DNA of 64,000 nt from Bacteroidota bacterium (GTDB taxonomy: Bacteria > Bacteroidota > Bacteroidia > Flavobacteriales > Flavobacteriaceae): the NCBI GenBank assembly GCA_040387175.1, contig JAZKED010000004.1:8210-72209 (forward strand), read 5' to 3'. Position numbers and translations under genes: made by a program. Positions 57,984-64,000 of this stretch are shown in pieces. How positions within the stretch are numbered: position 1 is the first letter of the stretch; each line of letters begins with the position of its first letter. The notes under the pieces are model-generated. The model saw nothing but the letters and a program-made list of their open reading frames with translations. It searched no databases and was not told the origin of the DNA.

Positions 57984-58652
57984 TTACTCCACCTGCATAA
58001 TAGTGAAAAATGATTTAGATCCACCAACTAAAGTAATACCTGAATCAGGCGTTGCTCCAAAAAATACCTTATCACCAGTATTAAGCTTCAATAAAGTTTG
58101 TACTTTTCTTGTTGGCGGAGATACTTTAACAACTACAGCATTAATACTAGTATATTCTTCCTCAGCTTCAAGAGTAGTTGTAGCGCCCTTAGTCGTGAAA
58201 ATAGCAACTCCTACATTTACTAATGATACTAATGAAGTCAATTCAAATTGCACATAAACACTATAAATTCCTGTTTTAGGGGCAGTAAATTCATATGTTG
58301 TGGTATCAAAATCAAGATTTTCATCAAATGCCTCTGTATTAAAAGCAATTTTTTTATATGCTGTACTCCCAATTGTTGCACCAAGAGATGTGGTTGTACC
58401 TCCTGTTCCTTTTACAAAAGATTTTATATGGCTATCATATATTTGTTTAGAAGTTACCCTATTAATGACTCCAGAGTTCACTACAAGAACTGAATCTTTT
58501 GCAGATACTAAAGTATTGTTCAAAATAGTAGTCCTAACTTTTAAATCTCCTTTAACATCTAATTGCGCAGTGGGAGAAGTAGTTCCAATTCCAACTTGAG
58601 CATAAGTTGTAACCGAAATTAAAACTAATAAACTAAGTATTTTTTTTTTCAT
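57984..58652 (-). CDS. Secreted protein with a VGIGT repeat motif and a C-terminal C1q-like domain (ATG 58652)
   Basis: Signal peptide, AQVGIGTTSPTAQLDVKG, then FNTEAFD...YEFTAPKTGIYSV...LNTGDKVFF...FFTIMQV. Confidence 0.8.
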   Translation of the reverse strand: MKKKILSLLVLISVTTYAQVGIGTTSPTAQLDVKGDLKVRTTILNNTLVSAKDSVLVVNSGVINRVTSKQIYDSHIKSFVKGTGGTTTSLGATIGSTAYKKIAFNTEAFDENLDFDTTTYEFTAPKTGIYSVYVQFELTSLVSLVNVGVAIFTTKGATTTLEAEEEYTSINAVVVKVSPPTRKVQTLLKLNTGDKVFFGATPDSGITLVGGSKSFFTIMQVE

Positions 58653-58863
58653 AATCAATTTTTATTTAATTTTTAAATACTAAACTATGAACTCTAAATT
58701 GTAATCTTAAAATGACCCCTCCTTACTTTTATCTAATTAATCTCCCTTAAATTTACATAAAAAATATTATTAATTTACTTTTTTTTACGTCAATTATACC
58801 TACAAATTAATTATTTGATTTTTAGCAAAATAACTTCATTTAAGCATTCATAGTTAGATTTAT

Positions 58864-60025: not shown

Positions 60026-62059
60026 CTAGAAAACAATTTCTATGGTTGTTCCATTTCCAATAGCAGAAGTAATATTCATAATTCCATTTATTGCTTTAGC
60101 TCTTTCTTTTATGTTTTTTAATCCAATGCCTGGTTTGGATTTTTCAGGATTAAAACCAATTCCATTGTCCCAAATTCGGATAGTTATTTTATCGCCAGTT
60201 TTCAGAAGAAATACACAACAATTTTCGGCTTTTGAATACTTATTACTGTTTTGTAAGGCTTCTTGAATTATTCTATAAACCTGTATTTTAGCATTACTTG
60301 AGACAGATGTCCAATCAATATATTTATCTATAGATACATCAAATTTTGTGTTGTATTGATTTTGTTGAGATGTCACCAAATTAGTTATCATCTCCGGAAC
60401 GGTTTGGTCTTCAAAAAGAAGATTTTGTTTTAAATCGTGAGAAACTCTTCTGATTTCATTCTCTGCTCTTTCCAATTCTTTAACCAATTGTTGTTTTTTA
60501 TCTAAAGCACCCGGTTCTAATTGAATTAAATTAAAACGGGTCGTGAAAATACTATTTACGATACCATCATGTAATTCCATTGCTATTCGATTTCTTTCTT
60601 CGTTACGAGCATGTTCTGTCTCTGATTGCTGACGCAGCATCAATTGATAAATCTTTTCATTAGCCTCTTGTTGTTCCTTTATAAAAAGTAATTCTTTGTT
60701 TCTAGCTTTTAGACGGTATATAACAAAAAAACCTCCTAAAAGAAAAAGAATAATTGCGGATCCAATGATAATATAGGTGTTTCTTTTGGATAAAACTTCA
60801 TTTTTTTCTTCTACCTGATCTGTTTCATAAGCAATACGGGCAAATTTATTTCTGGTAATCCGTTCTACAGTCTGCATACTATCGCTAACTTTGATATATA
60901 AATCTGTGTAGAATTTTCTATTTTTAATATCATTATCTGATAATAATTTTAAAGACTGAAGTGTTAAATCATTATTTTTTATTTTTCTAGCCAATGCTAA
61001 TCCTTCTTTAGTATAAGCAAGACCTTTTAAAGTATCTTTTTTTAAAAAAAAATATTCACCATAATTTATTTTGTTGGAAGCAATTGTTTGTTTTCTATCA
61101 AGACTGTCACTAAGTTTTGATGATTCATTTAAAAGATTGAGAACGTCTTTAAAATCTTCTGATTTCATTTTTGAATAAGCAAGATTATCTAAAAGCATAG
61201 TATATTCTCTAGGAGATTGTTTTTTTAAATCTTTTACCTGCAGTCCTTTATTATAAAAAAGTACAGCTTCTGAATAATTTCCCATTTTTTCATACACCCT
61301 GCCTATATTATTAAAATTGGTTGCTTTGTATACGATTATTTCTTCTTTTGAAAAGTTTTCTTTATTTAATTCTCTTAAAGCCAGATTAAAATAGTCCAGA
61401 GATTTTTTATAATCGTTTAATCCTTTTAATGATAGAGCTATTAAATTATAGCAATGATAAATCAAATTAGTATTTTCGGTTTTAGATAGTAATTGCATCG
61501 CTTTTACAGCCTCTGTCTCACTTTCTGCAAAATTTCCAGTATTATAAATAACTCCTCCTTTTAAAAAAGAAATAGTACCTAACATTAAGGTATCTTTTTT
61601 TATTTTATATAACTTTTCTGATTTGTTATAATAGCTGAAAGCACTATCATAAACTGATTTATTATTATAATAATCGCCTAGATAGTATAATGTCCTCGCC
61701 ATAAGAATAGTATCCTTTTTTTCAATAGACAAGTGATATAGCTTATTGGTTAATTTATAATATTTTTCAAATCTGATTATATTATAATAATTATTAGCGA
61801 CTTCTAAAATCAAATTCCTATTAATAGAATCATTATTATGTGCCAAAAGAAATTGACTCAGGGTATCTAAAGTTATTTCTTTGGTATTATCATCTGATTC
61901 AGAAGTTTCTAGTTTTTTTAAAATAGTAACAACTTCACTTTTATACTCAGCTGAATCTTTACTTTTCTGACAGGATACTATCAAAAAAAAGAGAATTAAT
62001 AACCCAATTACTTTACTTTTTGTTTTCAATTTTTGAATGACTATTTGAATTAGTATCAA
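60026..62059 (-). CDS. TPR-containing sensor histidine kinase (HisKA_3 plus HATPase); start uncertain (TTG 62059 or 62029)
   Basis: Lipobox-like LIVSC, about six TPR-like repeats, one TM (YIIIGSAIILFLLGGFFVIY), H-box RIAMELHDG, N-box QEALQNSNKY, DNGIGF and GIGLKNI. Confidence 0.92.
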   Translation of the reverse strand: MILIQIVIQKLKTKSKVIGLLILFFLIVSCQKSKDSAEYKSEVVTILKKLETSESDDNTKEITLDTLSQFLLAHNNDSINRNLILEVANNYYNIIRFEKYYKLTNKLYHLSIEKKDTILMARTLYYLGDYYNNKSVYDSAFSYYNKSEKLYKIKKDTLMLGTISFLKGGVIYNTGNFAESETEAVKAMQLLSKTENTNLIYHCYNLIALSLKGLNDYKKSLDYFNLALRELNKENFSKEEIIVYKATNFNNIGRVYEKMGNYSEAVLFYNKGLQVKDLKKQSPREYTMLLDNLAYSKMKSEDFKDVLNLLNESSKLSDSLDRKQTIASNKINYGEYFFLKKDTLKGLAYTKEGLALARKIKNNDLTLQSLKLLSDNDIKNRKFYTDLYIKVSDSMQTVERITRNKFARIAYETDQVEEKNEVLSKRNTYIIIGSAIILFLLGGFFVIYRLKARNKELLFIKEQQEANEKIYQLMLRQQSETEHARNEERNRIAMELHDGIVNSIFTTRFNLIQLEPGALDKKQQLVKELERAENEIRRVSHDLKQNLLFEDQTVPEMITNLVTSQQNQYNTKFDVSIDKYIDWTSVSSNAKIQVYRIIQEALQNSNKYSKAENCCVFLLKTGDKITIRIWDNGIGFNPEKSKPGIGLKNIKERAKAINGIMNITSAIGNGTTIEIVF

Positions 62060-62071
62060 AAATATATATTT

Positions 62072-62104
62072 AAAACCAGATAATGTTTTTATTACCTGGT
62101 TTTA
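62072..62104 (-). terminator. Hairpin between the lipopeptide gene and the kinase gene
   Basis: Minus strand AAAACCAGGTAAT-AAAAAC-ATTATCTGGTTTT, starting about 13 nt after the peptide stop. Confidence 0.6.
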
Positions 62105-62117
62105 GTATTTAAAATAA

Positions 62118-62303
62118 TTATTTTTTAATAGGAGGAATAATAACATCTCCCCCGTCTGCTGAAATATCAATAGGTTTTACAATAGTAGCTTTACTTGGAG
62201 TGACTGAATTTTCATTTTGAGTTTCTATAGGGCTATCTTCAGTACAAGAAGACATTGAAACAATAGCAGTAAAACAAACGGCAATAATTAATAGCTTTTT
62301 CAT
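62118..62303 (-). CDS. 61-aa putative lipopeptide (SPase II signal; probable start ATG 62303)
   Basis: MKKLLIIAVCFTAIVSMSS-C, then a low-complexity linker and C-terminal ADGGDVIIPPIKK. Confidence 0.75.
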   Translation of the reverse strand: MKKLLIIAVCFTAIVSMSSCTEDSPIETQNENSVTPSKATIVKPIDISADGGDVIIPPIKK

Positions 62304-62745
62304 AAAAATATAATTTAAAAAATTAGATAATAATTTAGTATGGCGTTCCATTCTGGAATACCTATTTTTAAGAAAAACTGGGAATTAGTTTATTCTAGAC
62401 TACCAAGAATGACATCACTTTACCAGCGAATTTTTCCCCATTCTCGATAATGATTTTTCAAAAAAGAGATTGATTTGTGAATCAAACTCAGGGCAAATTA
62501 ACAGGTTAAAAATCATTATTTTATCTAATTTCAGATCCATCTTGTGAGTGTGTTCATTACACTAGCATAAGGGTATATCGAAATGGTGAAACCCTAAGTT
62601 TTGAAAATAGCAATAAACTATCATTAAGACTACTCTTTGAAATACAAGGAATTAACGTGTTAAATTTAAAGTGTTAATGCAAATTTTGCTATAAAATAAT
62701 TACACATTAAAAATTTAATATGAATAGAAGAAATAGAAAAAAAAA

Positions 62746-63459
62746 CTAAATATTAATTTTTCTAATTATAGCTTCAACATTATCTCTATAGTTAAGAGAA
62801 AAAGGCAAGATTATATCATAATTCAGATAACACTTTGATTTGCTAAAATGAATTCTTGAAACCTGATTGATATTCACAATATAACTTTTGTGAATTCTTA
62901 AAAAATAGAAAGGCAAAGTGGTTTCAAAATGCTTTAAAGTTTTAAAAGCATTTACGGTATTGCCATTGTATAATTGAATGTCGGTAGTATTGTTATCAGA
63001 CTTCAGATAAAGAATATCTTGCAAAGCAACAAAATGATAATCACTATAGGATTTAATACAAATAGTTGAAACATTTGGTACTGGATTTCTTTTTTCAAAT
63101 TGGAATAAGCTTTTTCCCAATTGATGTATCTGTAATGGCATTAAGACATAATCTGAAAATCCCGATTGTATAGCTGTAAAAGCATAATCCGGAGTTATAG
63201 ATAATGCCATAAAATATGGAATTGCATCTAAATATTGAAAGGATTCTTTTATAATTTCAAAAATAAAATTAGTATCTTTCGATTTAGCTGGAATTTGAAC
63301 AATTACCAATTGTGGCTTTAGTTTTATGATTTCTTTTATGGCAGTTTGACTATCTTTGACAATTCCAGCGCAAAAATAATTTGGAAAATTTTCGAATACA
63401 TCTAAAATTTCCTTTACTGTGCTGTCGTTATTATCAATAATAAGGAATGAAAAACGCAT
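62746..63459 (-). CDS. LytTR-family regulator with a pseudo-receiver domain
   Basis: LytTR domain (DILYLKSDNNTT...FLRIHKSYIVN). The receiver lacks the second acidic residue (IIDNN), the phosphoacceptor Asp (LVIVQI) and the Lys (DYVLMP). Confidence 0.88.
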   Translation of the reverse strand: MRFSFLIIDNNDSTVKEILDVFENFPNYFCAGIVKDSQTAIKEIIKLKPQLVIVQIPAKSKDTNFIFEIIKESFQYLDAIPYFMALSITPDYAFTAIQSGFSDYVLMPLQIHQLGKSLFQFEKRNPVPNVSTICIKSYSDYHFVALQDILYLKSDNNTTDIQLYNGNTVNAFKTLKHFETTLPFYFLRIHKSYIVNINQVSRIHFSKSKCYLNYDIILPFSLNYRDNVEAIIRKINI

Positions 63460-63562
63460 AAATTCATACTAAAATAAGGAGACTGCAATCTAAACAAGAA
63501 CAAATTTCTTTTGGTGCAGAAAAACTGCCTATTTTGTTAAAATTTAAATAATATAATTTATA

Positions 63563-64000
63563 ATGAATATACTCTTAGTAGATGACCATCCTATGACGGT
63601 AGAAGGGTTTATGAATGCTCTTTTAAAGTCAAATTTTTTAAAGGACGAACCTGTTTTTACCAAAATACATACTTGCGAAGGAGCTTATAATATTATTGAG
63701 AAAGCTATTAATATCCAAAATTTATTTGAGTTAGCTATTTTGGATCAAGGATTACCAAACTATCCTGAACAATCTATTGAATCAGGAAGTGATTTAGCCC
63801 TTTTGATTAAAAAACACATGCCTGACTGCAAAATCATAATGGTCACAGCCCATACAGAAGTTATTATAATATATGACATTGCAAAAAAAGTTAGACCTGA
63901 TGGACTGGTTATCAAAAATGATATTACACCTGATAACTTACAGGAAATAGTAACAGAAGTCATAGAAGGTGGATTATACCATAGTCCTATGGTAAAAAGT
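63563..64000 (+). CDS. Canonical response regulator receiver (probably NarL/LuxR type), runs off the right edge
   Basis: Hand translation: MNILLVDDHP...LAILDQGLP...IIMVTAH...LVIKND...YHSPMVKS, with no stop in the window. Confidence 0.85.
   Translation, partial: MNILLVDDHPMTVEGFMNALLKSNFLKDEPVFTKIHTCEGAYNIIEKAINIQNLFELAILDQGLPNYPEQSIESGSDLALLIKKHMPDCKIIMVTAHTEVIIIYDIAKKVRPDGLVIKNDITPDNLQEIVTEVIEGGLYHSPMVKS

Follow-up and report, generated by a model that had tools for sequence, protein, structure and literature searches.

A cassette of four adjacent genes was analyzed at the end of the window, by which we mean the whole 64,000-nucleotide stretch of DNA (contig C4:8210-72209 of a 3.1-Mb Flavobacterium-type genome). 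The cassette codes for a small lipoprotein, a sensor histidine kinase with a tetratricopeptide repeat (TPR) domain, a LytTR-type DNA-binding protein and a divergently encoded NarL-family response regulator (RR). Our reading, which we regard as probable without being secure, is that these genes would constitute an autoregulated loop running from the peptide to the periplasmic TPR kinase, from the kinase to the NarL-type regulator, from this regulator to the LytTR protein and from the LytTR protein back to the peptide gene. This reading is built on computational observations of gene linkage, duplication of the cassette, selection on repeated peptide units, co-divergence of peptide and sensor, conservation of regulatory sites and of an RNA structure, loss of a phosphoacceptor residue and the fold class of the sensor. 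In particular, peptide divergence tracks that of the TPR sensor, and not that of the kinase domain, in both clades, namely, the family of the window cassette and the clade of a paralogous cassette on contig C1.

Conservation and duplication of the cassette

Calls of open reading frames (ORFs) and Pfam/NCBIfam matches placed the kinase gene, the small ORF, the LytTR gene and the divergent receiver gene where a preliminary description of this DNA had claimed four adjacent genes (Table 1). The AT-rich block of that description was also apparent, with a GC content of 27.5% for the cassette block compared to 33.8% for the genome, placing the block among the lowest 1% of 4-kb windows. A small ORF with a signal peptide was present directly upstream of the TPR-HisKA_3 kinase gene in ∼68/73 related loci (∼93%), while only 3.2% of the long ORFs of this genome (38/1170) had such an upstream ORF by the same criteria. 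The preliminary description had named homologous kinases without an adjacent peptide as a finding that would speak against its proposal; the peptide gene was found to be adjacent down to kinase identities of ∼32 to 40%, other genera included.

The window family comprised the 29 best loci, with kinases 37 to 64% identical to the window kinase. A lipoprotein ORF of 44 to 73 amino acids (aa) ended 29 to 100 bp upstream of the kinase gene in 25 of these loci, and the RR gene was divergent from the LytTR-peptide-kinase genes in 13/18 loci of the family for which 12-kb extracts were inspected. Matches at E ≤ 1e-40 in a class-wide sample were confined to the taxonomic family of the window. The small signal-peptide ORF preceded the kinase in 13/14 loci of this sample, four other genera among them; in the loci of these four genera, the kinase gene was flanked by a small lipoprotein ORF on the upstream side and an RR gene on the downstream side.

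The same genome contains a paralogous cassette (C1:208500-212600) in which genes for a LytTR protein (271 aa), a 58-aa signal-peptide ORF, a TPR kinase and a NarL-type RR are co-oriented; the kinase is 36% identical to that of the window. Of the 34 loci detected in a scan of one genome per species, 32 were orthologues of this paralogue in named Flavobacterium species. The order LytTR, a gap of 513 to 642 bp, kinase and RR was found in 30/30 C1-clade loci with the upstream region present, and the gap contained a small signal-peptide ORF in all 30. A third TPR-HisKA_3 kinase (574 aa; C6:394400-396900) has a NarL-type RR gene directly downstream with no peptide ORF and no LytTR gene, and this pair is, by its gene content, a minimal version of the family. 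Kinase homologues (E ≤ 1e-60) were detected in 244/301 Flavobacterium genomes and, on this measure, the module occurs in most of the Flavobacterium genomes sampled as well as in other genera of the family.

These data bear directly on the hypothesis that the small ORF is spurious and that the four genes are ordinary neighbors without a functional link. The ORF is short, the small proteins have no Pfam/NCBIfam family above the cutoff (a subthreshold match to the PG1828 lipoprotein family covers mainly the signal peptide) and only 3 close homologues of the 61-aa ORF were present in a 5.8-billion-protein database, which are points in favor of this hypothesis. The recurrence of an ORF at the same position far above background, the conservation of its signal peptide and C-terminal motif, the low rate of nonsynonymous change in the repeat units of its paralogues, the duplication of the whole module and the predicted promoter, operator and terminator dedicated to the gene (see below) are all contrary to this hypothesis, which is hardly credible and was effectively refuted by the comparative data.

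Three loci of the window clade that lack an intact LytTR gene (L090, L091 and L101) retained an N-terminal LytTR remnant and had an in-frame stop in the kinase gene, suggesting that the cassette was decaying as a unit. Other arrangements were encountered in single loci. Two kinase-RR pairs were present in tandem behind one LytTR gene and one peptide gene in L006, L026 had three kinase genes, of which two were each accompanied by a peptide gene, and two different small peptide genes preceded a single kinase gene in L103.

Peptide precursors

The 26 aligned peptides of the window family are single-unit lipoproteins with a C-[ST]-[AT]-D-[DS] start, a variable middle and a conserved C-terminal element that centers on an almost invariant Gly-Asp. 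Examples of this element are ...NGDKDLPKPPxRP, ...DGVDDKDKxxG and ...IDGVNPPRP, with ...ADGGDVIIPPIKK in the window copy, and the pattern [ST]ADG(GD/DG)..PP[IV]KK was retained by the three closest peptide homologues. The lipoprotein export signal (LES) of F. johnsoniae has the consensus SDDFE (PMC5080379). The start of the window peptide, C-TEDSP, resembles this pattern in having a Cys, a polar residue and then acidic residues, and surface display of the lipopeptide is, hence, possible. A duplicated peptide end was observed in one window-clade relative (L042).

Precursors of the C1 clade have a different organization, consisting of a signal peptide (MKKAILTIGLFSLVMILTSFTT...) followed by 2 to 6 tandem copies of a 14- to 15-aa unit, such as IIGGGATGGNVKVD (four copies), IIGGQSAGGNMKLD (five copies) and NIDGGSRQIKTDNIA (four copies). 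The unit varies by species with a conserved end, GGN[VM]K[VLM]D. These precursors lack Cys and contain a plausible signal peptidase I site. The term lipopeptide used in the preliminary description is thus appropriate for the window family, which has a lipobox, and not as a trait of all relatives, as the signal peptide of the paralogous clade is of a non-lipoprotein type. The C1 paralogue of this genome encodes a single unit (...GAGQVIKKD), in common with the window copy; multiple copies were found in 29 C1-clade orthologues, almost all of the orthologues in other species having 2 to 6 tandem units. Throughout, the peptides are Gly rich, charged and highly variable among species.

Tandem units were delimited at ≥60% identity for these 29 C1-clade genes, and substitutions between units of one gene were counted by the Nei-Gojobori method. 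The proportion of synonymous differences (pS) was 0.425, while that of nonsynonymous differences (pN) was 0.0135, giving a ratio of 0.03. As the DNA of the units has diverged and the protein is identical, the copies must be old and held by purifying selection, which is expected if every unit yields an identical active peptide. This strongest evidence for selection comes from the paralogous clade because the window peptide is single copy.

The TPR sensor and its co-divergence with the peptide

The window kinase consists of an N-terminal signal with a lipobox, periplasmic TPR hairpins, one internal transmembrane segment (∼aa 432 to 455) and HisKA_3 and HATPase_c domains (PF07730, E 5e-6; PF02518, E 1e-10; H-box ELHDG). 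The TPR domain was placed outside the cytoplasm due to its location between the signal/lipobox and the transmembrane segment. The true start of this kinase is probably the TTG at 62029 (MKTKSKVIGLLILFFLIVSC) rather than the TTG at 62059, since the latter belongs to a promoter-like TAnnTTTG box that trails the terminator in orthologues. The lipoprotein-type signal Cys (∼61970-62029, minus strand) is retained in both paralogues and in 30/30 C1-clade orthologues, and the sensor may be held at the membrane at both ends by an N-terminal lipid and a C-terminal transmembrane segment.

An AlphaFold model of residues 31 to 428 (pLDDT 88, pTM 0.81) contained 18 helices forming approximately nine TPR hairpins, followed by a long helix entering the membrane. 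TPR-like repeats had been described previously for this sensor and were supported by the model; the repeat number of about six given at that time was too low. The closest structures found with Foldseek were LGN/Pins complexes (TM score up to 0.67) and Rap-Phr pheromone receptors (TM scores 0.56 to 0.64), and the top structures were TPR domains solved with extended peptides inside the inner groove. Profile searches with the sensor sequence detected generic TPR matches only, with Rap phosphatases at an E value of about 1e-5. The modeled fold suggests what the TPR domain could do and not membership in the LGN/Pins or Rap families.

The sensor domain diverged faster than the kinase domain (mean distances, 0.34 versus 0.22 and 0.57 versus 0.43). 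Peptide/TPR co-variation, which had been proposed as a check, was detected in partial Mantel tests of both clades. For 29 C1-clade cassettes, the correlation of the unit with the TPR domain given the kinase domain was 0.55 (p 0.0004), compared to −0.01 for the unit with the kinase domain given the TPR domain; the corresponding values for the peptides of 26 window-family cassettes were 0.45 (p 0.0002) and −0.13. Shared phylogeny and unequal rates may inflate Mantel correlations when the genes are linked, and this is a point against our reading; the asymmetry, with the TPR domain correlated and the kinase domain not, was present in both clades despite this possible inflation.

Co-divergence is equally expected if the small protein is an envelope-tethered accessory or feedback partner that modulates the TPR sensor in cis, comparable to MgrB-PhoQ, NlpE-CpxA or RcsF, in which case the kinase would report envelope state or lipoprotein trafficking and not cell density. 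The lipobox of the window-clade peptide and the conserved lipobox Cys of the kinase would place both proteins at a membrane surface, and an exporter or processing gene is not linked, consistent with such a partner. Several identical units under strong purifying selection are, however, hard to explain for a partner acting at a 1:1 ratio, and the C1-clade precursors have no Cys and a plausible signal peptidase I site. Furthermore, the inducible-looking promoter and strong terminator of the peptide gene would uncouple its dosage from that of the kinase, and a peptide with an LES-like start would be expected at the cell surface, apart from a sensor located in the periplasm. On this evidence, we consider a tethered partner to be rather unlikely.

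Regulators of the cassette

The window LytTR protein has Gln and Met in place of the acceptor Asp and the Lys of its receiver domain, respectively, in agreement with the preliminary description, in which canonical phosphorylation of this protein was considered not to be feasible. A census of the acceptor position detected Glu in all C1-clade orthologues, including the paralogue of this genome, whose receiver is still recognized by Pfam, and Q, R, G, K, S, T or E in the remaining members of the window family. Only 2 of ∼53 cassette-linked LytTR copies had a true acceptor Asp. The LytTR protein is predicted from this to be a conserved phospho-independent regulator and not a phosphorylated output of the kind present in the Agr and Com systems, the acceptor Asp being absent in ∼50/53 orthologues.

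The divergent RR, by comparison, has an intact receiver, as described before, with all of the expected residues present (Table 1). A profile of 10 RR orthologues matched RcsB, VraR, DesR, NarL and EvgA over the receiver and helix-turn-helix (HTH) regions, and no direct match to Pfam GerE was obtained for the RR, indicating that its HTH is divergent. The kinase is likely to phosphorylate this NarL-type regulator and, in these terms, the cassette is an ordinary member of the HisKA_3/NarL two-component class only.

A GCAG-N5-CTGC palindrome is located between the divergent RR and LytTR genes, with a −33-type TTTG directly downstream of it that points toward the RR gene. The half-sites of this palindrome co-vary in orthologues (GCAG/CTGC, GTAG/CTAC and TACGG/CCGTA), making the palindrome a candidate operator of the NarL-type regulator. 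An RR-operator-like palindrome was not evident upstream of the LytTR gene in the C1 clade. Only three copies of the extended 26-nucleotide (nt) palindromic motif occur in the genome, pointing to a small predicted regulon. The two extra copies were nearly identical to that of the RR promoter and were not conserved in other species. One of these, situated ∼135 bp upstream of a 72-aa ORF (59669-59451, minus strand) and a DEDDh exonuclease gene, was absent from the corresponding position in orthologous loci and is a candidate lineage-specific output promoter; the other is upstream of a gene for a secreted MORN/TonB_C protein on contig C5.

Candidate operator, leader and terminator of the peptide gene

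A conserved block upstream of the peptide gene contains a candidate LytTR operator composed of three direct repeats in a 21-bp phase. LytTR domains, such as those of AgrA, ComE and YpdB, are known to bind direct repeats spaced in this way. Most of the cassettes of the C1 clade and of a clade at 40% identity had the triple repeat (about TCATTYACY) with exact 21-bp spacing and at a fixed distance, and only the two outer repeats, 42 bp apart, fitted the motif in most window-clade cassettes. For the class sample, a strict regular expression missed most of the triple repeats, which were recovered by scanning with a position weight matrix (PWM). This PWM was built from other genomes, mostly from C1-clade sites, and in this genome it detected a single outstanding triple site (30.1 bits) upstream of the C1 peptide gene, the next-best match having 17.9 bits. 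Among loci outside the PWM training set, an operator of 19 to 22 bits was present in 6/8 loci with a LytTR gene versus 0/5 without one, the 99th percentile of the null distribution being 6.0. The LytTR protein most likely drives the peptide gene. This operator fits the earlier proposal that the peptide gene is a target of positive feedback as far as the site is concerned; the positive sign is an assumption of the model.

The operator is also consistent with the small protein being a regulated product, such as a surface or antimicrobial peptide, and not the input, with the kinase sensing something else. Bacteriocin-like peptide genes are commonly under the control of LytTR regulators, the peptides have the Gly-rich, charged and very variable character noted above, and the operator puts the peptide gene on the output side of a regulator. 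However, genes for immunity, transport or modification were not linked to the cassette; the peptide-kinase pair persists in loci without a LytTR gene, and a mere output would not show a correlation with the sensor after removal of the kinase-domain signal. This explanation is, in our view, improbable.

The ∼130 nt from a candidate −7 box (TTAATTTG) to the peptide ATG is highly conserved in the window clade. The box itself, of the Bacteroidota type, is conserved at a fixed distance upstream of an RNA leader, and we infer that it is the promoter of the peptide gene. The leader consists of a 12-bp helix, P1, around an invariant GGGGAA and a hairpin, P2, followed by P3 with an invariant UUCCC loop. 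Across 15 sequences, 87% of the cells of the helices were paired and compensatory changes were observed in 16/24 pairs; 0/500 shuffles were as good, and slid controls were 39 to 51% paired. A pseudoknot between GGGGAA and UUCCC is possible, both sides being invariant and, hence, without a covariation signal. The leader had no Rfam match, and a permissive Rfam scan of the cassette gave chance-level matches only. A covariance model of the leader detected exactly one copy per genome in 16/301 genomes of the genus. Of these copies, 15 were directly upstream of a window-clade peptide gene and the 16th was a weak match (E 2e-4). No significant match to the model was obtained in other clades and genera, indicating that the leader is specific to the window clade. 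A 41-aa ORF that overlaps the leader (62415-62540, minus strand) is probably not a gene.

An 8-bp palindrome, GAAGCTTC, was present at the start of the leader, ∼25 nt downstream of the −7 box, in 13/15 leader-bearing loci. It was absent from the window copy and from L051, and L052 has AAAGCTTT. This palindrome could be a protein-binding site.

The sole terminator-like site in 4.1 kb is a hairpin (62104-62071) that separates the peptide stop codon from the start of the kinase gene and is a candidate leaky terminator or insulator. Nearly every cassette of all clades has an equivalent hairpin between these two genes, with a stem sequence that differs by clade. With these elements, the peptide gene is predicted to be its own transcription unit.

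Proposed circuit and points against it

In the loop that we regard as probable, we infer the binding partners, the sign of each step, the processing and release of the peptide and any action that it may have between cells. The small gene would encode an exported pro-peptide. In the window cassette, this would be a 41-aa lipopeptide that begins with an LES-like sequence and may be surface displayed; in the paralogous clade, it would be a signal peptide followed by several identical 14- to 15-aa units. The conserved C-terminal part, or the unit, would be the ligand, occupying the concave groove of the periplasmic TPR superhelix and thereby setting the activity of the HisKA_3 kinase, which would phosphorylate the divergently encoded NarL-family regulator. 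The phosphorylated regulator would bind GCAG-N5-CTGC and drive expression of the RR and LytTR genes and, additionally, from two other promoters of this strain. As the LytTR protein is not phosphorylatable, it would act according to its abundance, binding the three 21-bp-phased repeats and switching on the peptide gene. The latter, as a separate terminated unit with an RNA leader, would close a positive feedback loop in which peptide dosage would be set by the leader and terminator without being tied to that of the kinase. The peptide signaling circuit of the preliminary description is, overall, partly supported.

Several observations weigh against this loop. The window peptide is single copy and lipid anchored, which would suit a tethered partner no less than a released signal. 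TPR folds also accommodate partners other than peptides, and no dedicated protease or exporter is linked within the cassette and its conserved flanks. Some family members consist of peptide, kinase and RR genes only, such that the LytTR gene is not essential. The middle repeat of the window operator is weak and this operator was not among the top matches of the PWM, which derives mostly from C1-clade sites; furthermore, 2/8 independent LytTR-positive loci were without a scoring operator.

A more far-reaching reading is that Flavobacteriaceae use genuine peptide pheromones, with species-specific peptides being cut from exported, often multicopy precursors, released, possibly from the cell surface or on vesicles, and detected by TPR kinases in the periplasm. 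Receptor and peptide would then co-diversify into pherotypes, and production would be tuned by a new structured RNA leader together with a LytTR amplifier that acts independently of phosphorylation. We advance this pheromone reading tentatively, as a possibility that is open to considerable doubt.

Comparison with known signaling systems

Peptide cell-cell signaling is textbook knowledge for Gram-positive bacteria and almost unknown in Gram-negative bacteria, and signaling in Bacteroidota is poorly understood. Full-text literature searches found no description of TPR kinase/LytTR/peptide signaling in Flavobacterium or Bacteroidota, in agreement with the preliminary description, whose author knew of none in Flavobacterium. 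The cassette resembles the Agr system of Staphylococcus, the ComCDE and BlpRH systems of Streptococcus and the Pln system of Lactobacillus in the following respects: the gene for an exported precursor adjoins that for a membrane histidine kinase; a LytTR regulator and 21-bp-phased repeats (candidate LytTR boxes) before the peptide gene give a layout like that of an autoinduction loop; and the peptide varies between species and co-diverges with its putative receptor. The Agr/Com receptor is, however, a polytopic HPK10 kinase, while the cassette kinase has a single transmembrane segment, a periplasmic TPR sensor and a HisKA_3 core. The Agr/Com LytTR regulators are phosphorylated on Asp, whereas that of the cassette has no acceptor and the likely phosphorylatable partner is of the NarL family. 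The cassette also lacks an AgrB/ComAB-type processing exporter and a double-glycine leader, and its host is Gram negative.

ComQXPA of Bacillus subtilis is similar to the proposed loop in having a secreted pheromone that is sensed outside the cytoplasm by a HisKA_3-class kinase (ComP), which signals to a NarL-family regulator (ComA), and strongly polymorphic pherotypes. In contrast to ComQXPA, the cassette has no ComQ-like isoprenyl transferase, has a TPR superhelix instead of a multitransmembrane sensor and adds a LytTR pseudo-receiver regulator and an RNA leader. The RRNPP receptors (Rap-Phr, NprR, PlcR and PrgX) share the TPR superhelix fold class, with the Rap-Phr similarity described above, and, under the proposed loop, a cognate peptide that is encoded beside the receptor and derived from the C terminus of an exported precursor. 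These receptors are cytoplasmic one-component proteins, fused to HTH or phosphatase domains, that respond to reimported peptide, whereas the TPR domain of the cassette is extracytoplasmic and fused to a kinase; the sequence link between the two is weak and confined to generic TPR repeats. A signal peptide followed by tandem identical copies, 2 to 6 in the paralogous clade, is reminiscent of the prepro-peptide of yeast alpha-factor, but evident Kex2-type dibasic spacers are missing, the precursor is a bacterial Sec substrate and the window copy has a single unit. MgrB-PhoQ, NlpE-CpxA and RcsF provide precedents for a small envelope protein coupled to the periplasmic domain of a kinase as part of a feedback loop, but none of these proteins is a repeat precursor or hypervariable, and TPR sensors are absent from the corresponding kinases.

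If the pheromone reading were true, the module would represent, with different building blocks, a Gram-negative equivalent of the peptide quorum sensing of Gram-positive bacteria. It offers a concrete candidate with defined peptides, a soluble TPR domain, two predicted operators, a small predicted regulon and an uncatalogued RNA motif. Among the members of the Flavobacterium group are fish pathogens and polymer degraders that are abundant in the environment, and a signaling handle would, hence, be useful. The tandem-unit precursors, with identical protein despite DNA divergence, are an unusual case of selection.

Features of the locus and its neighborhood

Table 1. Positions of the cassette genes and associated elements (window coordinates unless a contig is given)
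Feature	Position	Strand	Details
Second palindrome copy, TTAACA-N6-GCAG-N5-CTGC-N6-TGTTAA	59803..59839	.	Candidate; upstream of 72-aa ORF and exonuclease gene
Sensor histidine kinase, 677 aa	60026..62059	-	Pfam/NCBIfam: TPR_12/TPR_1/2/8, HisKA_3, HATPase_c
−7-like box TAnnTTTG after terminator	~62066-62057	-	Bacteroidota-type consensus
14-bp hairpin and U-run, peptide stop/kinase start	62071..62104	-	Candidate terminator or insulator; dG −16.3, z −5.0
Pro-peptide gene, 61 aa (MKKLLIIAVCFTAIVSMSSC...)	62118..62303	-	Lipobox (..SMSSC), acidic C-TEDSPIE, variable middle, conserved C terminus ADGGDVIIPPIKK
Structured RNA leader of peptide gene	62368..62453	-	15-sequence alignment with covariation
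Candidate −7 box TTAATTTG of peptide gene	62494..62501	-	Bacteroidota type TAnnTTTG
Candidate LytTR operator, three direct repeats, 21-bp phase (TTTCACC ... CTA ... CTCACAAGA)	62540..62595	-	Conserved block in 14 window-clade loci
LytTR DNA-binding protein with pseudo-receiver	62746..63459	-	Pfam LytTR E 6e-16; Gln55 for Asp, Met for Lys
Palindrome GCAG-N5-CTGC, then CTATTTTGTTAAA (−33 TTTG)	63516..63542	+	Candidate operator between divergent RR and LytTR genes
NarL-family RR, 218 aa	63563..64219 (window ends 64000)	+	D7/D8/D61/T95/K117 intact
Third palindrome copy	C5:73590-73650		Upstream of secreted MORN/TonB_C protein gene

The genes flanking the cassette were not conserved at orthologous loci, with no protease, exporter or target shared, indicating that the module is self-contained. 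The 72-aa ORF, the exonuclease gene, a C1q-like protein gene, a gene for a 152-aa secreted protein and an ABC transporter were all absent from the orthologous loci. The C1q-like protein is a secreted 224-aa protein (57984-58658, minus strand; Pfam C1q, E 5e-7) encoded two genes downstream of the cassette. A tRNA-Val gene lies past the end of the window (∼65086-65161 in window coordinates), ∼0.9 kb beyond the RR gene. This tRNA gene, the low GC content of the block and the nonconserved flanks raise the possibility that the cassette is on an acquired island.

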